Positions 1,146 to 52,600 of a DNA stretch of 57,322 nt are shown here, in pieces (the first letter of the stretch is position 1; every line of letters begins with the position of its first letter). The DNA lies in assembly GCA_964409515.1 (NCBI GenBank), contig CAYPDY010000001.1:6072-63393 (forward strand), in the 5' to 3' direction. The position numbers and the translations under genes are program-made. Under the pieces are notes generated by a model. The model had not been told where the DNA came from and did no database searches. It was given only the letters and a program-made list of their open reading frames with translations. The stretch is from an uncultured Dehalococcoidia bacterium (GTDB lineage: Bacteria; Chloroflexota; Dehalococcoidia; UBA2247; RBG-13-53-26).

Positions 1146-2459
1146 TCAGGAATGACTGGGAGGCGGCGCGCGCAAGCCGGAACACGACTCCGATGGCAGA
1201 ATCAGCCTGATCGCCCGCTCATACAGAAGGAAGTCCCAGGCCCAGTTGACCATCACCAGCACCCGGTTGCGGAAACCGATGAGGTTGAAGATATGCACTC
1301 CCAGCCAGAGCGCCCAGGCGCCAGTCCCACTGAACTCGCGTTGGCCGATTCGGGCCACTGCCGCCATGCGCCCGATGGTGGCCAGCGATCCCTTGTCCCG
1401 GTACCGAAACGGCAGAGGATCGGAAGCCTGCAGCTGGCGCTTAATGTTAAGCCCGGCCGCCTCCCCCTCCTGGATGGCGGGAGGGGCGGTGAACGGCAGA
1501 GGGCGTCCGTCTTTGTCCACGCGGGCGCAGTCGCCGATGGCGTACACCTCGGGATACCCGGGCACCTGCAGGGACGGCAAGACCTGGACTCGACCGTCGG
1601 CTGCCACCGGCAGGCCGGAGGTCTCCGCCAGGCCGTCCCCGCGCACGCCCGCTGTCCAGACCACAGTCCGGGTTGGTATGAGATTCCCGTCCTTGAGCTG
1701 CACCCCTCGGGGGGTAACGCGCGCTGCGGCGGCGCCCAGGAGTACCTCGATCCCCATTTTGCGAAGCCGCTGCAGGGCATAGTGGCGCAGGCGCTGGGGG
1801 AGATCAGCCAGAACGCTATCGGTGGCCTCAAGGAGCGCTACTCGGGCCTCACCCGGATTCAGCGCCGGGTAGTCTTTCATGGCCGGGCCCCGAACAAGCT
1901 CTGCCAGCGCCCCGGCAAACTCTACTCCGGTGGCACCGCCGCCGATGACCACGAAGGTGAGCAGACTCCGGCGGACTTCAGCATCGGTATCGCCGCCCGC
2001 CTGCTCCAGGCAGCACAGTATGTGGTTCCGCAAAGCGATGGCATGATCGAGTGTTTTCAGGGCAAAGGCATTCTCGGCGGCGCCATCCACGCCGTAGAAC
2101 CGGGTCGTGCTCCCGGTAGCCAGGATCAGGTAGTCGTACTCAACAGCGTGACCGGCCACCAGGAGTCTCCTGGCGCCGGGATCGATCCGCTCCACCTGGC
2201 CCATCAGGAAGCCGACATTCGGCATGCGGCGAAGGACGGTGCGCACGGGATACGAGATCTGCTCCGGTTCCAGCTCGGCCGCGGCCACCTGATAGAGGAG
2301 TGCATGAAAGGTGTGGTAGTTGTTGCGGTCGATGATGAGCGTGTCCACAGGGGAGCGGGCCAGCGCTCGAGCTGCGGACAGACCCCCGAAGCCCGCTCCG
2401 ACAATCACCACCCTGGGTCGTCCGCTCCGGCTGCCGTCCATACGGGGCGACCCGCTCAT
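1146..2459 (-). CDS. ndh: type II NADH:quinone oxidoreductase (NDH-2 family)
   Basis: ORF 1146..2537. It has RVVIVGAGFGGL and a second VVIGGGATGVE dinucleotide-binding motif, plus a hydrophobic C-terminal tail. Start trimmed to ATG 2459, which forms an ATGA overlap with the stop of the upstream VOC gene. Confidence 0.85.
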   Translation of the reverse strand: MSGSPRMDGSRSGRPRVVIVGAGFGGLSAARALARSPVDTLIIDRNNYHTFHALLYQVAAAELEPEQISYPVRTVLRRMPNVGFLMGQVERIDPGARRLLVAGHAVEYDYLILATGSTTRFYGVDGAAENAFALKTLDHAIALRNHILCCLEQAGGDTDAEVRRSLLTFVVIGGGATGVEFAGALAELVRGPAMKDYPALNPGEARVALLEATDSVLADLPQRLRHYALQRLRKMGIEVLLGAAAARVTPRGVQLKDGNLIPTRTVVWTAGVRGDGLAETSGLPVAADGRVQVLPSLQVPGYPEVYAIGDCARVDKDGRPLPFTAPPAIQEGEAAGLNIKRQLQASDPLPFRYRDKGSLATIGRMAAVARIGQREFSGTGAWALWLGVHIFNLIGFRNRVLVMVNWAWDFLLYERAIRLILPSESCSGLRAPPPSHS

Positions 2460-4682: not shown

Positions 4683-5018
4683 ATGGCGACCGTTGAGAAG
4701 AGGAGTCTGGATCAGCCCAAGGAGACGAAGAAGCTCGAGAAGGCGAAGATGGAGTCTGTCAGCGTCGCCGGTATCACCATTACCCGGGTCACTGCTGAAC
4801 CCGGCTGGCGGTGGTCCAGGAATCTAGGACCTGCGGCAGGGACAAAGAGCTGTCAGATGAACCATCTCATATATGTCGTTTCCGGTGGCCTCAAAGTGCG
4901 TATGGATGATGGGAAAGAAGAGGAGTTTGGTCCGGGTGACATAGGCAGTGTGCCTCCCGGACACGACGGCTGGACTCTCGGAGACAAGCCGGCGGTGTGG
5001 CTCGAAATCCCGCATTGA
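4683..5018 (+). CDS. cupin domain protein
   Basis: AAAGGAGG SD upstream of the ATG. Small beta-barrel-like sequence with HLIYVVSGGLKVRMDDGKEEEFGPGDIGSVPPGHDGW. Confidence 0.75.
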   Translation: MATVEKRSLDQPKETKKLEKAKMESVSVAGITITRVTAEPGWRWSRNLGPAAGTKSCQMNHLIYVVSGGLKVRMDDGKEEEFGPGDIGSVPPGHDGWTLGDKPAVWLEIPH

Positions 5019-6919: not shown

Positions 6920-8419
6920 CTACTCGTGCCGCAGCGTCTCCACCAACCTGACCATCGCCTCGGTGTCCCGCCCGCAGTACAGGAGCAGGTCCGCCCTCAG
7001 GTCCTGGCGGCGGTCGTCCGGGGTCGCCGGGTCGATGATCTCCGCATAGGCCAGCGATGCCGCCTGGCCGTCGGTGATCTCCAGGTCGTCATAGCCCAGC
7101 TCAGGCACCAGCGCCGGGAGGACCGCCTTCAAGGAGAATGACCCGTGGAAGTCGGGGTGGTAGCAGTTGCCCCGTACCAGGGGCAGCAGGTCCACAATGC
7201 GCTCGTCCAGCAGCGCGAGCAGGTCTTTCGACAGGTGGGGCAGGGCCTCCGCCAGCTCGCCGATGCGGGTTTCCTCGAACTTGGAGTAGACCACGATGGA
7301 TCCGGTCTCGCCCAGGGTCTTCAGGAGGCTCCTGGCCAGCGGCTCGCGGGGGTCGCCGGAGCCCTCGTGCAGGAACTCCCGGTGCGACAGCCTGCCGTCC
7401 GGGCCCAGAATGTGGTCTGACCACTGGAAGGGGATCACCTGGTAGGGATGTGTTCCGATGTACAGGGGGAGGGCCGGGTTGAACGACTCGAAATCCAGGA
7501 AGTGAACGGGGTACACCAGACGCTCCAGATCGCGGCGGATGGCCTGGTTGAGGTAGACCCGGTTGTTCACCACGCAGTCGCGGACCCGCCGCTGCATCTC
7601 GTTCAGCCCGGCGAAGCCGGGGTCGATCTGGCGGATGTCCTCGATGCCGCGCTCCTTCAGGAGCGACAGCAGCTTCTGGCTGGCCTTGGGGAGCTGACTG
7701 ACGGGATGCTCGGTTCCGCCCTCACTGCAGTAGTCAATGAAGGGGCACTCATGCGGGCTGGTGCACTGCCGGCCCGGCCTGATATCCGGCGGCACCGACC
7801 CCCGGAGCGCCTGTCGCATGGACTTGAGGTGCTCCGCTATCCCGGGCAGGTACCCCCGCACCTGTTCGGAGACATCCTCCACGGCGAAGAGCTGTTGCAC
7901 ATTGTAGCCGCCGCCGGGATAGGCGTAGTCCTTGTTCAGGTGGGCCAGGCAGGCCCGCCGCGGTTTCACCCCGGACCCCTCCAGGACGTAGAGCTGGATG
8001 GCCACGTCCGGGATGTGCTCCTCCTTCACGCTGGTGGTGGACTTCACCTCGACCAGGTCGTGCCGGCCCCCGATCGCGCGCGGCAGGATGTCGACACGGA
8101 CCCTGACATCATCGAAAATGAAGCCGGCCTCATAGACAGCCGGAACTGGGGGACCGGCGAGGACCGCCCTGGTGCCGGCAATGGCCTCGTTAATGTGGAG
8201 GTGGTCTTGCTCCATCAGGGTACCGCCGGGATACAGGTCCCGGGCCAGCTCTCCGACCCGGGTTCCGGCATCGAAGACCGCCTGCTGGGCTTCGTCCACC
8301 GGCGGCATCAGCTCCCGGTGGAGACTCTCCAGGTAGAGGCGCTTCAGACACTGGAGTCCCGCGTTGAAGCTGGACTTGGACAGCTTCGGTATCTGCCTGC
8401 GTATGGATGACTGGTTCAT
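6920..8419 (-). CDS. DUF2779-type protein: Cas4/AddB-like PD-(D/E)XK nuclease domain fused to DnaQ/RNase H-fold exonuclease-like domain
   Basis: N-terminal half has C24, D110, E124-V-K126, Q142-L-Y144 and C219-x5-C225-x5-C231. C-terminal half has FLD309-F-E311-SF and Y481-CGR-D485. The ATG overlaps the upstream stop (ATGA at 8416-8419). Confidence 0.85.
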   Translation of the reverse strand: MNQSSIRRQIPKLSKSSFNAGLQCLKRLYLESLHRELMPPVDEAQQAVFDAGTRVGELARDLYPGGTLMEQDHLHINEAIAGTRAVLAGPPVPAVYEAGFIFDDVRVRVDILPRAIGGRHDLVEVKSTTSVKEEHIPDVAIQLYVLEGSGVKPRRACLAHLNKDYAYPGGGYNVQQLFAVEDVSEQVRGYLPGIAEHLKSMRQALRGSVPPDIRPGRQCTSPHECPFIDYCSEGGTEHPVSQLPKASQKLLSLLKERGIEDIRQIDPGFAGLNEMQRRVRDCVVNNRVYLNQAIRRDLERLVYPVHFLDFESFNPALPLYIGTHPYQVIPFQWSDHILGPDGRLSHREFLHEGSGDPREPLARSLLKTLGETGSIVVYSKFEETRIGELAEALPHLSKDLLALLDERIVDLLPLVRGNCYHPDFHGSFSLKAVLPALVPELGYDDLEITDGQAASLAYAEIIDPATPDDRRQDLRADLLLYCGRDTEAMVRLVETLRHE

Positions 8420-9372
8420 TTCCCCCCCTCAGTTCCGACGGGCCGCTGTTGACTGTCCTTCCGGCTGGCCTGGTCCCCGAACTCCAGCCACACCAGGTAC
8501 TGCCCGGCGCACCCATCGCAGACCGTGGCCAGCACGCCGTGCACCTCAAGCGTCTCCACGCACCCCGGCCGCGATGTCTCTTGGGAGAGCTCGATCGTGA
8601 CGTACCGCTCGCCCCGGGCTATCCCGGCCTGGCAGAGGCTGCAGGACTCACCCCCGGGCGCGTCCTGGCGGCGCAGCGACGCCCAGTCGCCTCGCTCTCT
8701 GGCGAAGCGGCGGAAGCCCTCCTGTTCCAGCCGGAACAGGGGCATGGGGGCATGGCCGAAAGCGATGGACTGGTTCTCGGCCTTCTTCCGGCAGTCCGCG
8801 CACACCTGCAGCGAGGCGGTGCTGTCCAGTATTGTGTCTTCGGGCTGGCCCTGGCCGCCCTTCTCCCTCAGCACGCGGGAGACGCAGTAGTAGTGCTCCC
8901 CGTGCTCGATGCTGCGGTCACAGGAGAAGCAGGTCACCAGTCCGGGGTCGGCGGCGGCGGCGGCCCTGCGTTTCCACAGCCTCTCACGGAAGATGACGTA
9001 GCCGGCCATCTCGCCCATGCTGAGCACCAGGTGCACATCGCGCAGATAGGCCGGAGCATCCGCGCCCGAGCCGGGCTCCAGGAAAGCAGGCTGGGCCCTG
9101 TCGTCGAGCCTGTCCAGGAACTCGTCCTCCTCGGTCCGCCAGCGCGGCGCGTATTGAACGCAGAAGCCCTTCTCGGGATCATGGTAGAAGACATCCGCGG
9201 GCAGATGGTCGGTGAAGCTGCAGCTGCGGCAGCGATAGAGGTTGAGCTTGCCCGCCAGCAGGTCCTTCCTCGCTCTGGGGTCGGCCTGCGCATCTATGAA
9301 CTGCCTTATCCGGGCCCTGCCGGAGCTCCCGCACCGGGGACACTCAACTTCGACCAGTGTCTTCTGTTCCAT
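8416..9372 (-). CDS. CpXC-domain / triple zinc-ribbon protein
   Basis: CPRCG(11-15)...YRCRSC(47-51) followed by FYHDPEKGF (CpXC pattern). Two more CxxC...CxxC pairs follow: TCFSCDRS...VCADCRKK and SCSLCQAG...VCDGCAG. AGGAGGGG SD upstream of ATG 9372. Confidence 0.75.
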   Translation of the reverse strand: MEQKTLVEVECPRCGSSGRARIRQFIDAQADPRARKDLLAGKLNLYRCRSCSFTDHLPADVFYHDPEKGFCVQYAPRWRTEEDEFLDRLDDRAQPAFLEPGSGADAPAYLRDVHLVLSMGEMAGYVIFRERLWKRRAAAAADPGLVTCFSCDRSIEHGEHYYCVSRVLREKGGQGQPEDTILDSTASLQVCADCRKKAENQSIAFGHAPMPLFRLEQEGFRRFARERGDWASLRRQDAPGGESCSLCQAGIARGERYVTIELSQETSRPGCVETLEVHGVLATVCDGCAGQYLVWLEFGDQASRKDSQQRPVGTEGGK

Positions 9373-9399
9373 ACTTCACCCCTCCTGCTGCCGCTATCG

Positions 9400-9428
9400 T
9401 TGGCTTCTCCTTTTCCTGGACCTAGAAT
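9400..9428 (+). promoter_or_regulatory. possible distal promoter TTGGCT-N17-TAGAAT
   Basis: Hexamers at 9400-9405 and 9423-9428 with a 17-nt spacer, oriented toward the WYL gene. Confidence 0.3.
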
Positions 9429-9439
9429 AGCACAGCGCT

Positions 9440-9457
9440 TTGACAGGTGTATGTCAA
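9440..9457. promoter_or_regulatory. inverted repeat TTGAC-N8-GTCAA (candidate operator)
   Basis: TTGAC at 9440-9444 and GTCAA at 9453-9457, in the divergent intergenic region. On the minus strand the right arm reads TTGACA after a T-tract. Confidence 0.35.
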
Positions 9458-9484
9458 AAAAGCGCGGATTCGTCCGAACAACCG

Positions 9485-9513
9485 GTGACATTTCTGGACA
9501 AGAGGGCTAGAAT
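9485..9513 (+). promoter_or_regulatory. candidate sigma-70-type promoter GTGACA-N17-TAGAAT for the WYL regulator
   Basis: GTGACA at 9485-9490 and TAGAAT at 9508-9513, with an exact 17-nt spacer. It sits about 30 nt upstream of ATG 9545, which has GAGGAGG 6 nt upstream. Confidence 0.45.
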
Positions 9514-9544
9514 GCGCCAGGAGCTCCGGGCGAGGAGGTGGCGC

Positions 9545-10531
9545 ATGTATGAAGACGGGCTGAGGAAGATAGAGCGGCTTACCAGGATATGGTTCCTCAT
9601 CCAGACCGAACCCTTTCATTTCACGGCAAAGGCCCTGGCGGAGAGGTTCGATGTTACGGTGAAGACCATATACCGGGACCTGGACACCCTGGACGTGGAG
9701 CTGCGGGTGCCGATAGAGAAACGGGGCCCCAGACTGGGAGTCAGCGAGGGCTACTACCTGCCGCCGATCCGGCTGACGGTCCCTGAGGCGCTGACCATCT
9801 TCCTGTCGGCCAGGCTCATGCTCGGCTACTCCCACCGCTACGACCCGCGGGTCGACTCCACCTTCACCAAGCTGGGCGCGGCGGTGCCGCTGCCGCTCCG
9901 GGAGCAGATACAGAAGACCCTGGACTGGATGCGGAAGCTGCCCCGGGATGACCGGTCACTGCGGAACATGGCCAGGCTGGCCGAGGGATGGGTGTCGCAG
10001 AAGAGGCTCAAGATACGCTACCGGTCGCAGGGGGCCAGGGAGGCGGTGGACCGCGTCATAGAGCCGTACTTCATCGAGCCGGCGGCGCCCGGGCACTCCA
10101 GCTACGTCATCGCCTACTGCCGCCGCGCGCAGGGGATCCGGGTCTTCAAGGTGGAGCGCATCGAGGGCATTGAGATCATGGAAGAGACCTATGCCGTACC
10201 AGGCGACTTCGACGCCAACGAGTACCTGAGGGGCGCCTGGGGCATCGTGGTGGAGGGTGAGGAGCAGACGGTGCGGCTCAGGTTCAGCCCGGAAATCGCC
10301 CGCTTGATGGAGGAGACCATCTGGCATCCGTCCCAGAAGCTCGAGAAGCAGGTTGACGGTTCGGTTAGCATGACGCTGACGGTCTTCCAGACCCCGGAGC
10401 TGCTCACCTGGATACTGGGCTGGGGGGAGAAGGTGGAGGTGCTGGAGCCGGAGGAGCTGCGGAGGCAAGTGCGGAAGACAGCGAGGGCGATGGTGGGGGT
10501 GTACGCAGGCACCGGCCGCAGGTCATCGTGA
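9545..10531 (+). CDS. HTH-WYL-WCX transcriptional regulator
   Basis: N-terminal HTH (FTAKALAERFDVTVKTIYRDLDTLD). Central WYL-like region (LKIRYRSQGAREAVDRVIEPYFIE...SYVIAYCRRAQGIRVFKVERI). C-terminal WCX-like region (LRFSPEIARLMEETIWHPSQ...ELLTWILGWGEKVEVLEPEELR). Start moved from 9440 to 9545 because of the SD and the promoter elements lying inside the longer ORF. Confidence 0.85.
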   Translation: MYEDGLRKIERLTRIWFLIQTEPFHFTAKALAERFDVTVKTIYRDLDTLDVELRVPIEKRGPRLGVSEGYYLPPIRLTVPEALTIFLSARLMLGYSHRYDPRVDSTFTKLGAAVPLPLREQIQKTLDWMRKLPRDDRSLRNMARLAEGWVSQKRLKIRYRSQGAREAVDRVIEPYFIEPAAPGHSSYVIAYCRRAQGIRVFKVERIEGIEIMEETYAVPGDFDANEYLRGAWGIVVEGEEQTVRLRFSPEIARLMEETIWHPSQKLEKQVDGSVSMTLTVFQTPELLTWILGWGEKVEVLEPEELRRQVRKTARAMVGVYAGTGRRSS

Positions 10532-10557: not shown

Positions 10558-10959
10558 CTACTTGACCAGGGCCAGGCCGACCTCGAAGAAGCCGAGCCCG
10601 CTCCTGCAGGGGACAGGCTGCTCGTAGGCCACGGGGTTGGCCAGGACAAAGCCATATGTGCCCGCGAACCAGGGGCTCCGGCTCGAGGTCACGCAGTCGA
10701 CGATGTCAACTTCGCCGACGATGCAGCCCGGCTTGCCGTCGCGCTGCATCTGGAGCCACTTCGCCTGTGCCTCTTCCTGTCCGCATTCTCGTCCGAGCAG
10801 GCGCAGGGCTGTTCGGTGTCCGCTGGCTGTGTCCCACTGACTCGAGGCGTGAACGTAGATCCGCCCCCGGAACTTCGTGGGCCAGCCTCTGTTCTCTACA
10901 TCCTTGAAGCCGTGCACGATCAGCCAGGCCCACGGCTGCTTTATGCTGAGTGCTTTCAT
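10558..10959 (-). CDS. ASCH domain protein (PUA-like fold)
   Basis: MKALSIKQPWAWLIVHGFKDVENRGW is the canonical ASCH N-terminus. Length of 133 aa fits. Confidence 0.8.
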   Translation of the reverse strand: MKALSIKQPWAWLIVHGFKDVENRGWPTKFRGRIYVHASSQWDTASGHRTALRLLGRECGQEEAQAKWLQMQRDGKPGCIVGEVDIVDCVTSSRSPWFAGTYGFVLANPVAYEQPVPCRSGLGFFEVGLALVK

Positions 10960-10991
10960 GTTGCGTCCATTCTCTCAGCCGGCAGGTGAAA

Positions 10992-11195
10992 TCAGCCGGC
11001 GGTCCCTCCGCTGCCAAATACGAGATCCGGTGTCGCCGATGAGGGACCTGTTCTACCGGTCTTGTGGTACTTGAACCGAGCGGTGTTCTGCGGAAAGTCC
11101 CTTTCCTCGCCGCAAACCTTGCATGTTGCATGGTACGAGCCGCCCACGGGTCGGGTCTCGATCAGCCAGTGATGGGCGGTAGCGCATGGGTCCAT
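10992..11195 (-). CDS. small Cys/His protein (C-x3-HHW ... CKVCGEER-x-F), paralog of 16153..16428
   Basis: MDPCATAHHWLIETRPVGGSYHATCKVCGEERDFPQN. The same core is found in a second ORF 5 kb away. Confidence 0.55.
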   Translation of the reverse strand: MDPCATAHHWLIETRPVGGSYHATCKVCGEERDFPQNTARFKYHKTGRTGPSSATPDLVFGSGGTAG

Positions 11196-11260
11196 CGGGT
11201 GTAACCCTCCTTTCAGGGGGAGAAGGCCGTCGGGGTGATCGCTATTTCAGGATAACGACA

Positions 11261-11289
11261 GCAGAGGGCGGGACAGACCCGCCCTCTGC
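11261..11289 (-). terminator. perfect 12-bp GC-rich hairpin just downstream of the zinc-ribbon gene
   Basis: GCAGAGGGCGGG (11261-11272), 5-nt loop, CCCGCCCTCTGC (11278-11289). It begins 10 nt after the stop at 11299. The following U-tract is weak. Confidence 0.5.
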
Positions 11290-11298
11290 TCATTGTGA

Positions 11299-11610
11299 CT
11301 AGTATCGCGAGGCGCTGGGCTTGACCTTGCTGAAGCACTCTCGGCAGTACACCGGTCGGCCGTTTCTGGGTTCAAATGGCAGTTCCGTGGCCTTGCCGCA
11401 CTGAGAGCACGTTGCCGGATACATCTGTCGCCTTGACCCGCCGAAACCAGAAGAATTGCCATTCTGGGCTTTTCGGGCGGAGCGGCAGACAGGGCAGCGC
11501 TTGGGCTCATTGGTGTAGCCCTTCTCGGCGAAGAAGTCCTGCTCGGTGGCGGTGAAGGTGAAATCCGCACCGCACTCGGAGCAATTGAGTGTCTTGTCCA
11601 CAAAGCTCAT
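11299..11610 (-). CDS. CxxC-x17-CxxC zinc-ribbon protein (two copies of the motif)
   Basis: KTLNCSECGADFTFTATEQDFFAEKGYTNEPKRCPVCR and ATCSQCGKATELPFEPRNGRPVYCRECF. AAGGAGGT SD. Confidence 0.8.
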   Translation of the reverse strand: MSFVDKTLNCSECGADFTFTATEQDFFAEKGYTNEPKRCPVCRSARKAQNGNSSGFGGSRRQMYPATCSQCGKATELPFEPRNGRPVYCRECFSKVKPSASRY

Positions 11611-42418: not shown

Positions 42419-45400
42419 TCAGGAGGCTGTACTCTCTCCCACCGAGACCCGATTCTTCCCGGATTTCTTGGAGGCGTAGAGGGCGCCGTCGGCGGACCGG
42501 ATCAGGCCGTCCTTGTCGCTGGCATGGTGGGGGAAGGCAGCCAGGCCGATGCTGACCGTCAGTTTCGAGCTTCCTGCGGAGTGGCGGATCTCCATCTCTT
42601 CGATCGAGCGGCGCAGCTTCTCGGCGGCCACCAGACCGGCCTCCAGGTCGGTTTCCGGCAGGATTACGGCGAACTCCTCGCCGCCGTATCGGGCGGAGAT
42701 GTCCACGGTGCGCGTGTTCTGGCGGATGGCGCGGGCCACATGCCTCAACACCTCGTCGCCCACCTGGTGGCCGCAGGTATCGTTGAACTCCTTGAAGTTG
42801 TCGATGTCGATCATGGCCAGGGAGAATGACTGGCCGTAGCGCCGCGAGCGCTGGACCTCCTGGTCCAGCAGGATGTGGAAGTAGCGGTGCACGAAGAGCT
42901 TGGTCAGGCCGTCGGTGGTGGCCAGGTCGAAGAGCTTGGCGTTCTCCAGCGATATGGCCGCCTGGGCGGCGATGATGCCCAGGATTTCCAGGCGGTCCGG
43001 GGTGAAGGCCCCTGCGGCCAGGTTGTTCTCCATGTACAGGATGCCGTAGAGCTTGCCCTTGTTCAGGATCGGCGTGCACAGGATGGACTGGCAGCGGCGG
43101 CTGATGACGTGCGGGTCGTTCATGAAGGCGCCCTCCTGGGCGGCGTTGGCCAGGATAACGGGTGTGCCGCTGCGGGACACGTAGTTGATGATGGCCACCG
43201 AGAGGCCTTTGCAGTCCTCCAGCGGGGTGGACTGCAGCACGCGTGACTCATGGGCACCGACGTCCTCACTGGCCTCCACTGTCAGCCGGGCGTCCGATTC
43301 CAGGCACAGGTAGCCGAGCTGCGCGCCGGCAGTCGTGATGGACATGTGCATGATCTTCTGCAGCAGGCGGTCCAGCATGATCTCGCTGGATATGACCTGG
43401 GAGACCTGCATCACCGCGGACAGGTCCAGCAGGCGGGAGCCGGCAGACGTCTGCTCCATGTTCCCGGGCAGGCCCGGCCTGGCCTCGCCGCGGACGAGAT
43501 CCGGGTAGCGCTCCTCGAGGTCCTTCTGCTTGGCCGACGCTCCCCAGGAGCGGTACAGATGGTGGGCCCGCTGCATGAAGAGTCCGGCTTCACCTCCCAG
43601 GTCACGAGTGAGATAGTACAGCGCCAGGTGCTCGCAGGCCCGGGCCTCGTCGTGGAGATAGTCGTTCCGGCGAGCCCCCTCAATGGCGGCATGGTAGAGC
43701 CTGATGGCCTCGTTCGGCCGGCCGGCCAGGGCCGCCATCTCCGCAGCGACCAGGTCATGCTTGTGCTGGAAGTTCTCGGGGCAGAGGGCCGCCCAGGTGC
43801 GCATCTTGCGCTGGTTGCGGCGCAGGATGTCTGTGAACTTCTGGCGTCGCTTCACCTCCCCCTGTGCGAGCAGGGCTGTCAGGATCAGGGAATAGTAGAA
43901 GTAGTGGTCGACGACCAGGAGGGCGCCGATGGGGACATGGACGTGCTGGTCTATTTCTGTGGAAACCTCCAGAGCCTCCTCGTACCGTCCGTACCAGGAG
44001 AGCAGGATGGCCCGGGGAAGGAGCGCCAGGCACAGGCCGAAATGGTGGCCTTCTTTTCGGAAATGGTCGGTGTAGGCGGCCATATCGAAGCCGTCTCCGG
44101 AGAGGTCATCACGCAATGGTGAGGCGCCCTTCAAGACCAGGATGTAGCGGATGAGCGCCCGGTACTGGGCCGTAATCAGCGGATCCTGCAGGACATCCAT
44201 GAACTCCTGGTATCTCTTGAGGTCATCCAGGACGTCGTCCAGGCGCGGGGAGATCCTGAGCCGGGTCTCCCCCGCGGCGTTGATGCTGTGTCCGGCATAG
44301 ATGAAATCGCCCGCGTTAATGGACAGCTCGTAGACCTTGGGATAGACCGCCAGGTCGTACCTGATATGTCTCTTCCAGTGCTGGATAAAGAAGGCGAAGA
44401 TGTGGTGGACCTGGCCGGCCACGCTGCGATTGTCGAGCCTTTCGTTCAGTTTGAGGGCCATCTCGCCCAGGCGGTAGCCGAGCGCATAGTCGCCCTGGGC
44501 ATTTTCCACAATAGTTGCCAGGGCGGCGAAGGCCAGTGCGGCATGCGGCACATGCCCGTAGCGAAGGCTGGCGTTCACCCCCTTGAGCACCAGCAGGGCG
44601 AAGAGGTTGGCGTTGACGTAGTAGGCGGGTGTGGCGATGCTCAGCATTAGATCGTGCGCGGCCAGGAGCTCTTCGTCCTGCATGCGGGGCAGTTCCAGGA
44701 TGTCCTCCAGCTTCCGCCTCCTGAGGGCTGCGCGCGCCTTGATAAGCTCGACAGCGACCGGGGCCTTGCCGACATCGATCGATATGTGGATGCCGAACAG
44801 CTTGAGGGCGGCCAGGCCCAGCTCGATGGCCTCGCGTGGAGAGCGCAGGCTGGTGTAAACCACTACCATGGTGGTGTAGACCCGGGCCTTGTCCACCCTG
44901 GTGCGCGACATGGCCACGATGACCTCGGACAGCCTCTCAGCCTCCTCGAAATCACGATTGAGGAACTGGCACTCCATCAGCTGCTTATGAAGATCGTACG
45001 TCAGTTGATAGTCCGCCTGCCACGAGTCCGCCGCCAGGAGCTCCCGCCCCGCGCTGAGATAGGCCGCCGCCGCGGCATAGGCGGTGGACTCCTTGGCCTT
45101 GATCCCCGCCTCAAGGTTCAGTTCAGCCAGGCGGCGCCGCCCGGCCGGCGAGCAGATGTGAGCCTTCCCCTGGTTCAGCTGGTCGACGATGTAGAAGATG
45201 CGGTTGAACAGCTGGTCCGGCGGGGTGCGCTGGAGCTCCATGATACCGATCTCGAAGTGGATCCGTTCCCGCTCGGCCGGAGTCAGCAGGGAATAGGCGG
45301 CTTCCTGGATGCGGTCATGGTGAAAGCGGTAGCGGTCACCCCTGCGGTTGACGAGCCCTTCCTGGATCAGGGCGTCGAGTGTGATGAGCACCTCCTCCAG

Positions 45401-47320
45401 GGGCTGGCCGGCGACGGAGGCCAGGGTCACGGCGTCAAAACGGTTGCCGATAACGGCGCAGGTCTGAAGGAGTCTCCGGGGCGCGGGCGCCAGAACATGG
45501 ATCCTCTCGGCCATGAACTGCACCACGTTGTCGGTGACCTGCATCTCCTGGATCCTGACCATGTCCCAGGTCCAGCCCCGCACCGGGTCGAGGACGATGC
45601 AGCGCTCCGCGTAGAGGGTCTTCAGGAACTGGTTGACGAAGAAGGGGTTGCCCCTGGTCTTGGCCTGCATCAGGTATGCCAGGGGCTGGCTGCTCTCGGG
45701 CGGGCAGCGCAGGAAGTTGGCGATGAACTGGTTCACGTCAACGGGGCGGAGACCCCCCAGGGTGACGGTGTTGATCGTCAGCCCGGTCCGGCGCATGGTC
45801 TCCAGCGTCAGGCTGAGGGGGTGGTGGGGGGGCACCTCCGTGTCGCGGTACGCGCCGATGAACAAGAGGCAGCGCAGCTCGCCGTCGGTGGCGATGGTCT
45901 CGATCAGGTGGAGGCTGGCGCTGTCGGCCCACTGCAGGTCATCGAGGAAGAGCACCAGCGGGTGCGACGCATCGGCGAAGACCCGGACGAAGTTCCGGCA
46001 GCAGAGGTTGAAGCGGTTCTGGGTCTCCTCCGGGCCGAGGTCCGGGATGTCCGGCTGCGGGCCGATGATGAGCTCGACCTCCGGGATGGCGTCGGTGATG
46101 ATCTTGCCGTTGGGCCCCAGGCTGCGGAGGATCTTCGTCTTCCACTCCCGGACGCGCTCGTCGCTCTCCGCCAGGATCTGGCGGGCCAGGCTCTGGAAGG
46201 CCTGGATGATGGAGCTGTAAGGGACCGAGCGCCGGAACTGGTCGTACTTGCCGCTGATGAAGTAGCCTCTCTTGGCCAGGATGGGCTTGTGGATCTCCTT
46301 GACCAGGGCCGACTTGCCGATCCCGGGCTCGCCCTGGACCAGCATCACCTCCACTGCGCCCCGGGCGACGCGGTCGAAGGCGGCGTGGAGGACCGCCAGC
46401 TCGGCGTCGCGGCCGACTACGATCTGGGGGATGATGAAACGCAGGGAGACGTCCTGGCGGCCCAGGTCGAACGGCTCGATGCCGCCGGTGAGCTCCAGCC
46501 GGGCCAGGCACTCACGCAGGTCGGCGGCCAGGCCGAAGCAGTTCTGGTAGCGGTCGGCGGCGGCCTTGGACATGAGCCTCATGACGATGTCGGACACCAC
46601 TGTCGGGATGCCCTGCCTGAGCTTCGCCGGCGCGGGGGGAACTCGGGCGATGTGGGCATGGATCATCTCCATGGCGTCACTGGAGGTGAAGGGCAGCTGG
46701 CCGGTGAGCATCTCGTAGAAGGTGACGCCCAGGGAGTACAGGTCGGTGCGGTAGTCGACGGCGCAGTTCATGCGGCCGGTCTGCTCCGGGGAGATATAGG
46801 CCAGGGCGCCCTGGATGATCTCCGGGTTGTAGAACTCCGCGCTCTGGCGGGTGAACTCGGCGGCGATGCCGAAGTCGGTTACCTTCACGGTACCGGATTC
46901 CCGGCCCACGATGATATTGGCCGGCTTGATGTCGCGGTGAGAGATGTTGTTCTGGTGGAGGTGGCCCAGGATGTCGGCCAGGCATATCGCCAGCTCGAGG
47001 AACCTCTTGACGGGAAGGCCGCCGCGGATCACTTCCTTGAGGGCCACACCCCCGAAGTCCTCCAGAACCAGGGCCACGCCGCCTTCGGCATCCAGCACGT
47101 CGAGGACGCGCACGATGCCTTCCACGTTGAGGCCGCGGATGATCTGATACTCATGCTTGAGGCGGGCGACCTCCGCGGGGGTGGGATACTCGGCGCGGAG
47201 GGCCTTGATGATGACGGTGCCGGGCGGGTCCTCCCGGTGCGCCCGAAAGACGACGGAGTGGAGCGTCTCATCGATCTGCTCCACAACAGCGTAGCCCGGG
47301 AAAGCGCTCACTGCACACAC
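42419..47320 (-). CDS. multidomain signalling protein: Ser/Thr kinase - AAA/STAND ATPase - helical (TPR-like) repeats - GAF - GGDEF diguanylate cyclase
   Basis: GTG start. Kinase: VIIKAL, HRDIKPANI, VTDFG, YISPEQ. P-loop GEPGIGKS and Walker B LVLFLDDLQWAD. Then about 600 aa of helical repeats. GAF: ...CTPILNKGKLYGILYMEN. GGDEF: RTVD-ISARY-GGEEF. Confidence 0.9.
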   Translation of the reverse strand: MCAVSAFPGYAVVEQIDETLHSVVFRAHREDPPGTVIIKALRAEYPTPAEVARLKHEYQIIRGLNVEGIVRVLDVLDAEGGVALVLEDFGGVALKEVIRGGLPVKRFLELAICLADILGHLHQNNISHRDIKPANIIVGRESGTVKVTDFGIAAEFTRQSAEFYNPEIIQGALAYISPEQTGRMNCAVDYRTDLYSLGVTFYEMLTGQLPFTSSDAMEMIHAHIARVPPAPAKLRQGIPTVVSDIVMRLMSKAAADRYQNCFGLAADLRECLARLELTGGIEPFDLGRQDVSLRFIIPQIVVGRDAELAVLHAAFDRVARGAVEVMLVQGEPGIGKSALVKEIHKPILAKRGYFISGKYDQFRRSVPYSSIIQAFQSLARQILAESDERVREWKTKILRSLGPNGKIITDAIPEVELIIGPQPDIPDLGPEETQNRFNLCCRNFVRVFADASHPLVLFLDDLQWADSASLHLIETIATDGELRCLLFIGAYRDTEVPPHHPLSLTLETMRRTGLTINTVTLGGLRPVDVNQFIANFLRCPPESSQPLAYLMQAKTRGNPFFVNQFLKTLYAERCIVLDPVRGWTWDMVRIQEMQVTDNVVQFMAERIHVLAPAPRRLLQTCAVIGNRFDAVTLASVAGQPLEEVLITLDALIQEGLVNRRGDRYRFHHDRIQEAAYSLLTPAERERIHFEIGIMELQRTPPDQLFNRIFYIVDQLNQGKAHICSPAGRRRLAELNLEAGIKAKESTAYAAAAAYLSAGRELLAADSWQADYQLTYDLHKQLMECQFLNRDFEEAERLSEVIVAMSRTRVDKARVYTTMVVVYTSLRSPREAIELGLAALKLFGIHISIDVGKAPVAVELIKARAALRRRKLEDILELPRMQDEELLAAHDLMLSIATPAYYVNANLFALLVLKGVNASLRYGHVPHAALAFAALATIVENAQGDYALGYRLGEMALKLNERLDNRSVAGQVHHIFAFFIQHWKRHIRYDLAVYPKVYELSINAGDFIYAGHSINAAGETRLRISPRLDDVLDDLKRYQEFMDVLQDPLITAQYRALIRYILVLKGASPLRDDLSGDGFDMAAYTDHFRKEGHHFGLCLALLPRAILLSWYGRYEEALEVSTEIDQHVHVPIGALLVVDHYFYYSLILTALLAQGEVKRRQKFTDILRRNQRKMRTWAALCPENFQHKHDLVAAEMAALAGRPNEAIRLYHAAIEGARRNDYLHDEARACEHLALYYLTRDLGGEAGLFMQRAHHLYRSWGASAKQKDLEERYPDLVRGEARPGLPGNMEQTSAGSRLLDLSAVMQVSQVISSEIMLDRLLQKIMHMSITTAGAQLGYLCLESDARLTVEASEDVGAHESRVLQSTPLEDCKGLSVAIINYVSRSGTPVILANAAQEGAFMNDPHVISRRCQSILCTPILNKGKLYGILYMENNLAAGAFTPDRLEILGIIAAQAAISLENAKLFDLATTDGLTKLFVHRYFHILLDQEVQRSRRYGQSFSLAMIDIDNFKEFNDTCGHQVGDEVLRHVARAIRQNTRTVDISARYGGEEFAVILPETDLEAGLVAAEKLRRSIEEMEIRHSAGSSKLTVSIGLAAFPHHASDKDGLIRSADGALYASKKSGKNRVSVGESTAS

Positions 47321-49644: not shown

Positions 49645-52600
49645 ATGGTTGAGAGCGAGAAACAGCTGGAGATCGCCAGGGGCAGGCTGCTGGACCTGTC
49701 GCTGCGCAATCGGCTGCTGAACTTCCGGCCCACCAGGCGCCGGTCCATTGGGATCGTCGATGAGGTCCCGGCCGAGATCTATGACATCCTGGTCCTGAAC
49801 GAGAAGTCCATGCACTTCCGCCCGGGAGACCGGGCCGCGGCCCCGGATCCGGAGGGTGTTGACCGGCCGCCGGACCGCTTCCTCCAGACGGCGCTGGAGA
49901 GCGGGGAGCTCCAGGAGAGGCTGTACTTCCTCTACCAGGAGTCCGCGTCCAGCATGGAGGAAGCGGGGTACTCCATCCTCTACCTGGCCCTTGGCTTCCT
50001 GGAGTGGCAGGAAAGCGATGCTTTGCCGGAGACCCGGAAGGCGCCGCTGGTGCTCATCCCGGTGGAGCTGGAGCGCGCCGGCGTCAGGACGGCCTTCTCG
50101 CTGCGCTGGAGCGGCGAGGACCTGTCCACCAACATCTCCCTGCAGGCCGCGCTGGCCAGGCAGGGGGTCCTCCTGCCCGACTTCGAGATGCCGGACGAGA
50201 ACGAGAAGGAAGGCATCAACGAGTACTTCCAGGCGGTCTCCCGGAACATCCAGGAAAAGCCCCGCTGGCGGGTGGTCACCGACATCTACCTGGGCTTCTT
50301 CAGCTTCAGGAAGTTCACCATGTACCGGGACCTGGACCCGCATGCCTGGCCGGAGGACGCGTCTCCGGCGGACGCTCCCCTCATCCGGGCCCTCTTTGAT
50401 CCTGCCTACCGCGCGGAGAGCGTGCCCGGCTTCGATGGCGAGGAGTCCGACGAGAAACTGAGGGCCGCCGATCTCTATCATATTGTGGATGCCGACCCCT
50501 CGCAGATCGCCGCCATAGAGGACGTCAAGTCGGGGCGCAACCTGGTGGTGGAAGGACCGCCGGGGACCGGGAAATCACAGACCATCGCCAACGTCATCGC
50601 CGAATCCCTGGCGGCGGGCCGGAGCGTCCTGTTCGTCAGTGAGAAGATGGCGGCCCTGGAGGTGGTGAAGGCCCGGCTGGACCAGGCCGGGATAGGGGAC
50701 TTCTGCCTGCAGTTGCACAGCCACAAGTCGAACAAGAGGGAGGTGCTGGATGAGCTGCGCCGCACCCTGGAGATGGCGGCCCCCGGGGAAGTTCGTCTGG
50801 AGGAGGAGTTCGACCGGCTGGACAGCCTCAGGTCGGAGCTGAACGGGTACGCCAGGGAGCTCCGGGAGCCGTGGGGAAACCTCGCGCGCTCGCCGTTCGA
50901 CCTGTACTGCGCCGGCGAGGGCGTGAGGCGGCATTTCGAGGCGGCGGGCCGGCCGATGCCCGCAGTCAGCATGTCCCTCCCGGAGGGTTTCGACCAGAAG
51001 CAGTGGACGCAGGCCAGGTCCGCCTTCGAGGGGTTGGGGCAGGCTCTGCCGCTGGTGGCCCCCGTGGGTGCCAACCCGTGGCTGGGGTGCCGCCCTGCCA
51101 GCCTGCTGCCGTCGGATGTGGAGGAAGTCCGGGACCTGCTGGCCCGCTGCGCGGCTTCGCTCCGCCGGCTCGAGGAGAGCATCGACGCCGTGGTTGGCCT
51201 GTGCGCCATAAGCCGTCCGGCCAGCCTCGAGGAGCTGGGAAAGGCCACCACCGCGGCGGACATCATGGCGGCCTCCGTGCCCGTGGAGGCGGAGGCGCTG
51301 GCCAACCCGAAATGGGACGGGGCGGGCAGCCCGGCCCGGGACATCATCAGTGTCGTCGAGTCGACCCGGGAGGAAGCTGGCTTTCTGAAGTTTCGGTTCA
51401 GGGAAGACGCCCTGGGACGGGCCGACGAGATCGCCCGAATGCATGAGGAGTATGCCAGGAGTGCCGGCAGCCCCCTCCGGTTCCTCAGCGGCCGCTACCG
51501 GGATCTCAACCGGCAGGTGGCCGGGCTGTACCGGGACGGGGCCCCCGGGGACAACTCGCGGAAGGTCTCCGACCTTGGCCATTTCCGCCGGTACCGGGAA
51601 CTGCGCCAGCGGATCCAGGAGGACGATGGCATGGCCCGCTCCCTGTTCGGCCGGCACTGGCAGGCAGAGGCGAGCGATCCGGCCCTGCTGCGCCGGGTGG
51701 CGGACTGGGTGCCGTCGTTTCGCCAGATGCTGTCCTCGGGGACCATTGCCGGGGCGGCGGTGTCCCTGGTGGCCGCCGGGCTGCCGGCGGCGGAGCTGCA
51801 GAAGGCCACCGGGATGCTGAGGACGGCGGGCGAGGCGTTCTCCCGGGACCTGACCATGGTCCTGGAGAGGGTCGGCGCGGACTGCGCGGCGGTCTTCGGC
51901 GGCCCGAAGGACGGGGCGCGATTCCCGGACATAGGCCGGCGCCTGGAAGTCTGGAGCGGCAGTCTGTCCGGTCTCGATCGGTGGTCGCAGTTCGTGATGC
52001 TCAGGGACCGCTGCCTGGAGTCGGTGGGCTCGCCCGTGGCGGACGTGGTGATGCAGGACCGTGTGGAGGCGGCCGACCTTGTTCCCTGTTTCGAAGGCAA
52101 CCTGGTCAACGCGCTCCTGCGGCAGGCGTTCGAGAAGCGGCCCCACCTGGCGCGCTTCTTCGGCCTGGTGCACGAGAAGAAGATACAGGATTTCGCCGAT
52201 CTGGACCGCGGCCTGATTGCGGCCAACCGGCGCCGGCTGCGGCAGAAGCTGTGGAGGGCCATGCCGCGGGACCCGGCGGATGCCTCCCCCGGATCGGCGG
52301 CCGGGATCCTCCAGGGGGAGCTGCGCAAGACGCGCCGCCATATGCCCATCCGCAAGCTGCTGGTCAGGTGCGGCCCGCATATCCAGAAGATCAAGCCGTG
52401 TTTCATGATGAGCCCCCTGTCCATCGCTCAGTTCCTGGATCCCCGGAGCGTGCGCTTCGACCTCATCCTTTTCGACGAAGCCAGCCAGGTGCGGCCGGAG
52501 GACGCCCTGGGTGCGCTGCTGCGGGCCAACCAGGTGGTGGTCATGGGGGACCGGCGCCAGCTGCCTCCCACCACCTTTTTCGACCGGATCGTCCATGAAG

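Follow-up and report, generated by a model that had tools for sequence, protein, structure and literature searches.

The window (the whole 57-kb stretch of DNA that was analysed, 57,322 nucleotides) contains a two-gene operon on the minus strand, in which the CpXC gene is proximal and the DUF2779 gene distal to the promoter, and a divergent gene encoding a WYL transcription factor. The locus has the following features.

6920..8419, minus strand: DUF2779 protein, 499 aa, a fusion of two nuclease domains (ORF, PF11074, >3000 homologues, conserved residues)
6920..7522, minus strand: RNase H-fold DEDDy 3′-5′ exonuclease-like domain, aa ~300-499 (PF11074, D309, E311, D410, Y481, D485)
7715..8419, minus strand: Cas4/RecB-like PD-(D/E)XK domain, aa ~1-235 (D110, E124-x-K126, Q142, four Cys)
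8416..9372, minus strand: CpXC plus double zinc-ribbon protein, 318 aa (ORF, PF14353, twelve conserved Cys)
9379..9386, minus strand: Shine-Dalgarno sequence of the CpXC gene, AGGAGGGG (read from the sequence)
9424..9432, minus strand: extended −10, TGcTATTCT, of the operon promoter (alignment A2 conserves GTGcTATTCT as a block)
9441..9456: operator, perfect palindrome TGACA-N6-TGTCA (invariant columns in alignment A2; recurs)
9485..9513, plus strand: canonical sigma-70-type promoter of the WYL gene, GTGACA-17 nt-TAGAAT (promoter scan 10/12; conserved in A2)
9545..10531, plus strand: HTH_11-WYL-WCX transcription factor, 328 aa, divergent from the operon (Pfam, independent gene call)

The initial annotation had described these ORFs, an ATGA overlap between the operon genes, their CpXC, DUF2779 and HTH-WYL-WCX domains, and their catalytic and cysteine motifs. 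All are present and, with the exception of Y144 of the DUF2779 protein, conserved, and Pfam searches recover CpXC, DUF2779 and HTH_11/WYL/WCX. The overlap at 8416-8419, which joins the CpXC stop to the DUF2779 start and is preceded by a G-rich Shine-Dalgarno sequence, is real: the same 4-nt overlap is found in loci L001, L003 and L004, while an 85-nt gap separates the genes in L005. Housekeeping and metabolic genes flank the operon. Because these flanks are syntenic between relatives, the locus looks chromosomal and vertically inherited in a Dehalococcoidia-type bacterium.

The DUF2779 protein matches Pfam PF11074 at aa 306-429 (E = 5.5e−36) and the PADLOC Cas4 model at aa 24-233 (E = 1.5e−6). 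Among 26 DUF2779 sequences (56-77% identity), C24, D110, E124, K126, Q142, C219, C225 and C231 of the N-terminal half and D309, E311, D410, Y481 and D485 of the C-terminal half are invariant. The residues listed in the initial annotation are therefore conserved apart from Y144, which is not invariant, and the third acidic residue of the DEDDy set, D410, had been left unlisted. The four cysteines are putative Fe-S cluster ligands. In the AF2 model, the C-terminal half has pLDDT values mostly of 80-97, and Foldseek matches it to a family-B polymerase (5mdn, E = 3.7e−4) and to the ERI2 nuclease; the Cas4-like half, modeled with low confidence, gives weak matches to RecE, Cas4 and ACE1. The combination of Cas4-like and DnaQ-like domains, put forward in the initial annotation as part of an uncharacterised module, is not new: it was described in 2014 (PMC3985635) and a second time in 2026 (PMC13621843). 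DUF2779 was classified as RNase H-like family F.17, in an exonuclease clade without substrate information (PMC3985635), and its member MMSYN1_0389 of JCVI-syn3.0 is quasi-essential in the minimal cell (PMC13621843). Both belong to the same Pfam family as our protein and share with it the Cas4-like PD-(D/E)XK domain and the DEDD exonuclease in which Tyr replaces His, but the Mycoplasma protein retains two of the four cysteines that are all present here (PMC13621843). Neither of these two analyses of DUF2779 describes a regulator, a partner protein or a link to DNA damage (PMC13621843, PMC3985635). What our protein shares with the RecB-like nucleases of TM0106/COG2251 (TIGR03491) and Cas4 is a Cas4-like nuclease at the N terminus that bears an Fe-S Cys set and is followed by an RNase H-fold exonuclease domain; it differs from them in having no CRISPR context. 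Its TIGR03491 score of 24.6 bits is far below the cut-off of 97.45, so it is not a member of that family.

The CpXC protein is a fusion of two modules, each of which is also found separately. PF14353 matches aa 9-122 (E = 1.5e−17). In 15 homologues (47-79% identity), C11/C14/C48/C51 and the FYHDPEKGF motif (aa 62-70) are invariant or ≥90% conserved, as are the cysteines of the two further CxxC...CxxC ribbons (C148/C151/C191/C194 and C244/C247/C285/C288), which bears out the three-ribbon composition proposed initially. The protein has no match in the PDB by sequence or by fold.

Although the mechanically called ORF of the WYL gene begins at 9440, its likely start is the ATG at 9545, which has AGGAGG upstream and agrees with an independent gene call on an identical contig. 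This start gives a protein of 328 aa with Pfam HTH_11, WYL and WCX domains, transcribed divergently across a gap of exactly 172 nt, as initially reported. In a PDB sequence search, its closest solved relatives are PafC (E = 4e−13) and DriD (E about 1e−8), and no BrxR or CapW chain is among the matches listed at E ≤ 0.01. We compared residues on the basis of PMC10853764 and PMC11804915. The ssDNA-contacting residues R178, Y192, R204, W206 and R207 of DriD align with R170, Y187, R199, F201 and K202, and the recognition-helix pair that reads GTC aligns with K/R40 and R44 of the HTH. The protein also matches CRISPR-associated WYL models of PADLOC and the WYL-like N-terminal part of its "Cas3c" model (E = 5e−76).

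A feature newly found in the divergent intergenic region is the conserved TGACA-N6-TGTCA palindrome with PafBC geometry. Its promoter-proximal TGTC (9442-9445, minus strand) is positioned where the PafBC −26 element sits, and the TATTCT −10 box is located 12 nt downstream. This TGTC-N2-N10-TAnnnT spacing equals that of the PafBC −26/−10 consensus, tGTCgg(N10)tA(N3)T (PMC8635444), and the promoter scan detected no sigma-70 promoter and no −35 box at working distance on the operon strand. We found 11 palindrome sites in 1.13 Mb of related loci, against 0.69 ± 0.81 expected, although many box-bearing loci come from related genomes and are not fully independent. The box occurs once in the 57-kb window, and every orthologous locus has it upstream of CpXC. 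DUF2779 genes without CpXC (L015, L016) and a gene for a stand-alone small DEDDy exonuclease (L005) are preceded by it as well, and in L012 it lies beside the orthologous WYL gene. The proposed gating of the two-gene operon by the WYL protein is thus supported by a conserved operator/promoter box that lies between the genes and recurs in related loci.

This arrangement resembles three characterized regulators. SiwR of Mycobacterium smegmatis, an HTH-WYL-WCX homodimer that activates the msmeg_1357-56 operon next to it, is, as here, a single-chain WYL regulator adjoining its target (PMC10693628). Its palindromic operator lies between −35 and −10 and the −26 region is needed, similar to the palindrome and −26 element at our locus; its WYL domain binds ssDNA, and genotoxic stress induces the operon (PMC10693628). 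However, SiwR targets are DinB/YfiT-like metalloenzymes and not predicted nucleases, its conserved −26 triplet is GGA instead of GTC, and SiwR is actinobacterial, whereas our locus is of Chloroflexota type. PafBC, the mycobacterial DNA-damage activator that works by sigma adaptation (PMC8635444, PMC11804915), includes the closest solved relative of our protein, and both promoters have a conserved GTC and lack a −35 at working distance. The PafBC WYL arginines that bind ssDNA are retained as R199 and K202. Unlike PafBC, which is a heterodimer or fusion of two chains, binds a site that is not a palindrome and has a regulon of about 150 genes, our regulator is one 328-aa chain with a palindromic site and that single box in the window. 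DriD of Caulobacter crescentus, which as a WYL homodimer activates the SOS-independent damage response (PMC9186387, PMC10853764), has a similar homodimer-type architecture (about 327 aa) and reads palindromic GAC...GTC half-sites through two basic recognition-helix residues, as is expected here. Its ssDNA contacts (R, Y, R, W, R) are conserved or conservatively replaced. The half-sites are separated by N7 in DriD and by N8 here, the DriD regulon consists of recA, recJ, didA, bapE and dnaG in place of a CpXC-DUF2779 operon, and the similarity is limited to the WYL-WCX part.

We lean, if modestly, toward the view that the locus is a chromosomal regulator-plus-operon unit, in which WYL gates a nuclease operon that is probably inducible by DNA damage. 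The WYL protein would be made from its own ordinary promoter and would probably bind TGACA-N6-TGTCA as a homodimer, overlapping the −35/−26 region of the divergent promoter. If it works like PafBC, DriD and SiwR, ssDNA derived from damage or resection would bind its WYL domain, and the ssDNA-bound regulator would let RNA polymerase start at the −26/−10 hybrid promoter. The transcript would yield the zinc-ribbon protein, with its CpXC and two further ribbons, as a presumed lineage-specific accessory subunit, followed by the translationally coupled DUF2779 nuclease, and the two proteins would probably act together in trimming or resecting damaged DNA ends or flaps. We infer the ligand, activation over repression, the nuclease activity, its substrate and any CpXC-DUF2779 complex, the first two from homology at E values of 1e−8 to 4e−13. 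The locus would thereby apply the promoter-regulator pattern of ssDNA-sensing damage regulators to a CpXC-DUF2779 operon.

The initial annotation had suggested either defence or DNA damage. Damage has several independent supports, namely similarity to PafC and DriD, a promoter with PafBC-type geometry, and neighbouring DinB, MutS2, NucS and glycosylase genes, while defence has little. In four loci the gene directly upstream of DUF2779 is DinB, which overlaps it by 4 nt in two of them, MutS2 and NucS are also direct upstream neighbours, and UDG/glycosylase genes occur nearby. Given the PafBC/DriD/SiwR-like promoter and the adjoining WYL regulator, a damage-inducible DNA-processing unit is more likely than a phage-defence system. 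In the latter, which we regard as unlikely, a BrxR/CapW-type WYL repressor on the palindrome would be released by infection or phage-derived nucleic acid, and the CpXC-DUF2779 pair would degrade invading DNA. WYL regulators do gate BREX and CBASS, according to work cited in PMC10693628 and PMC11804915, and DNA-damage and defence genes alike are under the control of the WYL activator DdaA (PMC12392091). Because the extended −10 may allow basal transcription, a repressor could also act at this site. The PADLOC run proposed initially assigns WYL models that are CRISPR-associated, as given above, yet it matches the Cas4-like DUF2779 protein to a generic Cas4 model only and the CpXC protein to none. 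In L090, a 63%-identical DUF2779 gene directly follows McrBC; other homologues adjoin Uma2 or DUF559 endonuclease-like genes, lie near an integrase and a D12 methyltransferase, or, in one case, are fused to an SLFN/AlbA_2 domain. Against defence, the neighbours in 75-77 loci show no enrichment in defence genes, yet include DinB and MutS2; the surroundings in the window are metabolic or housekeeping, with the sole strong defence-model gene about 39 kb away; and flank synteny indicates vertical inheritance. PafC and DriD, not BrxR or CapW, are among the PDB relatives listed at E ≤ 0.01, and the quasi-essential family member in the minimal cell would be unusual for a defence gene. Both effector families (CpXC and DUF2779) are almost absent from viral contigs.

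It is also conceivable, though in our judgment quite improbable, that the operon processes nucleic acids independently of DNA damage, e.g., by trimming RNA 3′ ends or handling recombination intermediates. The ligand of the WYL protein would then be some other nucleic acid or nucleotide, and the neighbour links would be a sign of nucleic-acid metabolism in general. Many RNases are DEDD exonucleases, the clade of DUF2779 offers no guide to substrate (PMC3985635), and WYL domains, which have an Sm-like fold, were originally proposed as RNA binders (PMC6789036). Most genes near DUF2779 are unrelated housekeeping genes, and CpXC occurs elsewhere in fusions with GNAT, TPR and methyltransferase domains, which suggests a generic module. 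However, Cas4/RecB-like domains with Fe-S Cys are typically those of DNA-end nucleases, DNA-repair genes (DinB, MutS2, NucS, UDG) recur as neighbours, and promoter geometry and WYL residues fit ssDNA-responsive regulators. That the nuclease is a true Cas4 strayed from a cas operon, acting as an accessory in CRISPR adaptation, is hardly credible. In JGI, several homologues carry the name "CRISPR/Cas system-associated exonuclease Cas4," the PADLOC Cas4 model matches, and two homologues have precomputed PF01930 matches. However, the 57 kb contain no tandem or CRISPR-like array, no cas family is among the best 25 PADLOC and best 25 Pfam families in the rest of the window, and cas1 and cas2 are absent from the fully read gene maps and from the top-25 neighbour families. 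The protein also has an extra DEDDy domain, and its cysteines are spaced C-x5-C-x5-C, unlike the C-x2-C-x5-C of Cas4.

Within the favoured damage-inducible unit, the two partners of DUF2779 differ in distribution. The CpXC-DUF2779 pair, initially proposed as a module, is not general: CpXC adjoins DUF2779 in 2 of 80 species-level loci, all within the window's own clade, which restricts the CpXC partner to a single lineage. Nor is the pair obligate, since one relative has deleted DUF2779 while retaining WYL and CpXC. In contrast, the WYL neighbour, whose synteny beyond this genome had been raised as a check, stands up: WYL-WCX genes lie ≤8 kb from DUF2779 in 10 of the 80 loci, and WYL-DUF2779 is the wider, recurrent link, found in several phyla and in groups that include Binatota, Myxococcota, Gamma- and Deltaproteobacteria.

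The conserved regulatory region between the divergent genes is the main new result of the analysis. The 499-aa and 318-aa open reading frames claimed in the initial annotation are both present in the sequence, and the 172-nt gap to the regulator is confirmed with that gene starting at ATG 9545 (AGGAGG upstream), which gives a protein of 328 aa. The mechanical regulator ORF begins at 9440; an independent gene call on an identical contig uses the ATG 9545 boundaries. The elements of the locus are as follows.

6920..8419, minus strand: gene of the DUF2779 protein, 499 aa
8416..9372, minus strand: gene of the CpXC zinc-ribbon protein, 318 aa
9441-9456: perfect palindrome TGACA-N6-TGTCA, from the sequence search
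Minus strand (operon strand): conserved block TTTGACA-N6-cTGTCAA-N10-TATTCT
9485-9513, plus strand: canonical promoter of the WYL gene, GTGACA-17-TAGAAT, from the promoter scan and in a conserved block
9545..10531, plus strand: gene of the WYL regulator, 328 aa

An alignment of the intergenic region between the divergent genes, from the window and four relatives, shows low identity outside two blocks. The promoter scan of the operon strand returned no sigma-70 -35/-10 pair, and the TTGACA half-site, at 22 nt from the -10 box, is too distant to serve as a -35 box. The proximal TGTC is exactly 12 nt ahead of a TAnnnT -10 box that has an upstream TG. In the motif of PafBC, a characterised WYL regulator of DNA damage responses, tGTCgg(N10)tA(N3)T, a -26 element with GTC stands in for the -35 box (PMC8635444). 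In its sequence, the operon promoter has this PafBC-type hybrid geometry: GTC near -26, TGTC followed at 12 nt by a -10 box, and no -35 box. The TGTCAA-N10-TATTCT spacing of the window also occurs in seven of the related loci fetched for comparison (L001, L003, L004, L005, L006, L012 and L016). Chance could account for a one-mismatch palindrome at 4840-4855, which is within a cupin ORF.

The perfect palindrome occurs 11 times in 1.13 Mb of distinct sequence, against 0.69 ± 0.81 times in shuffles. A full-spacing box, that is, the palindrome with a -10 box at promoter spacing, lies upstream of CpXC in every orthologous locus and directly upstream of DUF2779 genes without CpXC in L015 and L016. 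L005 has two, one before an inserted stand-alone RNase_H_2 gene and one before CpXC. In L012, the orthologous WYL gene has a full-spacing box on either side, and the box heads a same-strand cluster, which on the map of the related locus L088 comprises DUF559, RNase_H_2, a 384-aa protein with a weak, sub-threshold methyladenine-glycosylase match, and DUF2779. Because of this recurrence, we conclude that this Chloroflexota group has a small WYL regulon marked by the box, and that DUF2779 is a recurrent member of it.

Other genes also lie next to the box. A full box at 7013-7028 (minus strand) of L008/L090 points at a DnaJ-domain gene (L090 6202-6870), and one at 2352-2367 (minus strand) of L012 points at an AAA ATPase gene that diverges from the WYL orthologue (1943-3289 on L088); judged by these positions, both genes are possible additional regulon members. 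The small stand-alone DEDDy exonucleases (PF13482 RNase_H_2, 161-167 aa) of L005 (3506-3991, between the WYL gene and CpXC and with its own box) and L088 (7125-7628, in the WYL-DUF2779 cluster) are 61% identical to each other, and neither has detectable sequence similarity to the C-terminal domain of DUF2779.

The WYL/WCX assignment was borne out by profile searches, which placed HTH_11 (E = 3.9e-9), WYL (E = 3.6e-15) and WCX (E = 3.2e-21) in one chain. The best solved-structure matches of the protein are PafC (E = 4e-13), DriD (about 1e-8) and PafBC (1e-4), and no BrxR or CapW chain is among the matches listed at E ≤ 0.01. Residues R170, Y187, R199, F201 and K202 align with DriD R178, Y192, R204, W206 and R207 and with PafC R201/R204, all of which contact single-stranded DNA (ssDNA) in those proteins (PMC10853764, PMC11804915); DriD R176 and R189 are not kept (V and H). 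On this alignment, the WYL protein would carry an ssDNA-sensing residue set like that of DriD, PafBC and SiwR. The HTH lies outside the alignment, and K40 and R44, placed by positional reading of the RTIxRD motif in the recognition helix, are probably the counterparts of the two arginines with which DriD and PafB recognise the guanines of GTC. Position 40 is K in the window and R in three of the four orthologues examined.

PafBC is a heterodimer or a fusion of two distinct HTH-WYL-WCX chains; its site is not palindromic, and it is linked to the proteasome locus. Membership of the WYL protein in PafBC was rejected: it consists of one 328-aa chain, it has a palindromic site, and there is no other WYL gene within 10 kb. 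The single chain and the palindromic site make the regulator resemble the homodimers DriD and SiwR rather than the PafBC heterodimer. The DriD site is GAC-N7-GTC, whereas the spacing in the window is N8. SiwR, which binds ssDNA and activates an adjacent operon via a palindrome and the -26 region (PMC10693628), is the closest functional precedent.

The DUF2779 assignment of the 499-aa protein holds over the whole Pfam model (PF11074, 124.1 bits against a cut-off of 23.3, E = 5.5e-36). Twelve of the residues proposed as catalytic or cluster-forming (C24, D110, E124, K126, Q142, C219, C225, C231, D309, E311, Y481 and D485) are invariant in an alignment of 26 sequences with 56-77% identity; Y144 is not. 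D410, also invariant in these sequences, completes a DEDDy set. The sequence and the AF2 model, which is confident for the C-terminal half, suggest a DEDDy 3′-5′ exonuclease of RNase H-like clade F, with DxE...D...Yx3D on an RNase H fold. Foldseek matched this half to a family-B polymerase (E = 3.7e-4), presumably via the exonuclease domain of the polymerase, and to ERI2.

The N-terminal half fits a Cas4/RecB-like PD-(D/E)XK nuclease with a putative Fe-S cluster, as suggested by its D...ExK...QxxxY-type motifs and its arrangement of one N-terminal and three C-terminal Cys, and the PADLOC Cas4 model matches aa 24-233 (E = 1.5e-6). The Cys spacing is x5/x5; that of Cas4 is x2/x5. The AF2 model of this half is poor (pLDDT 25-60), and its fold matches to RecE, Cas4 and ACE1, which fall on the poorly modelled region, are weak (E = 0.02-0.08). 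Membership in the TM0106 family of RecB-like nucleases (TIGR03491) was rejected at 24.6 bits against a curated cut-off of 97.45. Neither the single DUF2779 sequence nor a DUF2779 profile gave a meaningful match in PDB sequence searches.

The two-nuclease design of DUF2779 is already known: Majorek et al. 2014 assigned PF11074 to the 3′-5′ exonuclease clade within the RNase H-like proteins and recorded that it occurs together with a PD-(D/E)XK domain (PMC3985635), and a 2026 paper describes the quasi-essential MMSYN1_0389 of JCVI-syn3.0 as a Cas4-like + DEDD(y) fusion (PMC13621843). Our structure modelling agrees modestly with this design, and neither paper describes an experimentally defined role for DUF2779. 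The family is very common, with more than 3000 matches, and at least 509 relatives were confirmed among 599 candidate stretches of species-representative genomes. It is not always single-copy, since some genome bins carry two copies on different contigs (L009/L010, L053/L054 and L023/L080). The DUF2779 gene itself contains a terminator-like site (8124-8143), as can be expected by chance.

The CpXC assignment was likewise upheld (PF14353, 64.1 bits against a gathering score of 25.4, E = 1.5e-17). C11-P-x-C14 and C48-x2-C51 are conserved, and the CxxC ribbons read from the sequence are real to the extent that all twelve ribbon Cys are conserved in 15 homologues. The ATGA overlap with the DUF2779 gene at 8416-8419 exists and is preceded by a G-rich ribosome-binding site. 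The protein is a fusion of two modules that also exist separately: the first ~140 residues are mostly found as independent proteins of ~140 aa, and residues ~145-296, which form two long beta-hairpin ribbons, likewise exist on their own. The full-length architecture is confined to about a dozen 50%-identity clusters, and a metagenome scan with the CpXC alignment found three loci, all close relatives. No PDB relative was detected by profile search or by Foldseek (none better than E = 0.3), and the CpXC fusion partners seen elsewhere (GNAT, TPR, DUF7662, methyltransferase) gave no pointer to function.

CpXC is followed by DUF2779 in every close relative with enough sequence. Among 80 sampled loci, searched with a general CpXC profile as well, adjacency of the two genes occurs only in the window's clade (two loci, plus one with a distance of 3.7 kb). 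In L003 (8918-9046), a clean in-frame deletion joining residues 1-30 to ~486-496 has cut DUF2779 to a 42-aa remnant, and the WYL gene, the box and an intact CpXC gene are kept despite this loss; therefore, CpXC can persist without the nuclease.

The neighbours of DUF2779 were surveyed in the same 80 sampled loci (39-78% identity). The proposed association with a WYL gene does reach beyond this genome, with WYL-WCX genes within 8 kb in 10 of the 80 loci, seven of them within 2 kb, in varying orientations and with one as the abutting upstream gene. These loci span Dehalococcoidia, Binatota, Myxococcota, Gammaproteobacteria and Deltaproteobacteria. Four loci, from four Dehalococcoidia/Chloroflexota genomes, have a DinB-type polymerase gene directly upstream of DUF2779.

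L031, 1836-2936: Y-family (DinB/IMS) gene
L038, 6880-7980: Y-family (DinB/IMS) gene
L043, 5012-6106: Y-family (DinB/IMS) gene
L032, 6788-7858: Y-family (DinB/IMS) gene

The stop and start codons overlap by 4 nt in L031 and L038, which suggests co-translation. Other direct upstream neighbours are MutS2-Smr and NucS, and UvrD-like helicase domains match two upstream genes in the tally. A cluster in L091 (6689-14065) contains NucS, DUF2779 fused to SLFN/AlbA_2, NUDIX and a UDG-family gene, followed by a full-length CpXC-ribbon homologue. It has a D12 methyltransferase on its upstream side and a phage-type integrase on its downstream side, and may represent either a repair cluster or a mobile island.

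The best-supported reading is that of a WYL-gated operon switched on by ssDNA arising from DNA damage or resection, the output of which would be a dual nuclease and its lineage-specific zinc-ribbon partner. The regulator, operator, promoter geometry and recurrent neighbours point to DNA-damage processing, and the locus is a control unit of the SiwR/DriD/PafBC type with an uncharacterised effector pair. From the promoter architecture and the nearest characterised relatives, we favour activation by the WYL protein. The protein may possibly act as a repressor instead, and the extended -10 box might support basal transcription, which would fit that role; signal-dependent induction is the output under activation and repression alike.

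A role of the locus in phage defence we consider unlikely. Defence-like genes do exist near DUF2779 (McrBC in L090, Uma2 in L050, DUF559 in L088, methyltransferase and integrase in L091), but they are only sporadic; the clearest defence-type neighbour seen is the McrBC of L090 (1-3058), where McrB (AAA_5 + McrB_lid) and McrC lie directly upstream of a 63%-identical DUF2779 on the same strand. The view that the locus matches no named defence system was supported by PADLOC-DB v2, which gave CpXC no match and DUF2779 the generic Cas4 model only; the neighbouring DUF169 and ASCH genes also had no match. Viral scans, which were motif-seeded and may undercount, found two weak DUF2779 relatives and no CpXC, and viral contigs carry neither effector family to any notable extent. 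The 57-kb window contains no tandem or CRISPR-like array, and no cas family is among the best 25 families listed for the window and neighbour sets or in the gene maps examined in full. A Cas4 role in CRISPR adaptation was rejected, since neither an array in the window nor cas1/cas2 in these listings and maps came to light. If the defence reading were true, the locus would be a new nuclease-based system.

The main value of the ssDNA-gated reading is a testable functional hypothesis for DUF2779, with a handle in a well-understood regulator type, a 16-bp operator, PafBC promoter geometry and recurrent DinB, MutS2 and WYL neighbours. A wider and rather doubtful proposal is that DUF2779 might be the effector nuclease of an SOS-independent, ssDNA-triggered, WYL-controlled damage response in several phyla, in which a homodimer would perform PafBC-style sigma adaptation outside Actinobacteria, here in Chloroflexota, and CpXC would be a new accessory subunit of the nuclease. 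If the ssDNA-gated reading of the locus is borne out, the orphan nuclease family would gain a physiological role, WYL-controlled damage responses would reach Chloroflexota, and the locus would show whether homodimeric WYL regulators outside Actinobacteria use sigma adaptation.

GC content is uniform across the region. By Pfam, the flanks of the locus encode DUF169, cupin, ferredoxin-like and ASCH proteins, a double treble-clef zinc-finger protein and an ABC-F ATPase, and the relatives share flanking genes (Usp, DUF2934, ABC-F, PTP and ADP-ribosylglycohydrolase), which indicates vertical inheritance. Between the WYL and ABC-F genes, the stretch at 10558-11610 (minus strand) holds the ASCH-domain gene and a gene for a 103-aa protein (zf_Tbcl + zf_Tbcl_2); it has the look of a local insertion, since the WYL gene adjoins the ABC-F gene in L001 and L004. 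About 39 kb from the locus, at 49645-54423 (plus strand), lies the only strong defence-model gene among the families listed for the window; its 1592-aa product matches the PDC-S37 candidate-defence model end to end (1694 bits) and Hhe (E = 7.6e-216), and DUF4011 and MTES_1575 nuclease Pfam matches occur in the same set of window proteins. The 1633-aa protein at 42419-47320 (minus strand) has an N-terminal Ser/Thr kinase domain that matches many PD-T4-6, mad6 and MkoA kinase models, matches that may be generic. It may also be the source of an AAA_16 match seen among these window proteins, and could be a STAND-like signalling protein.
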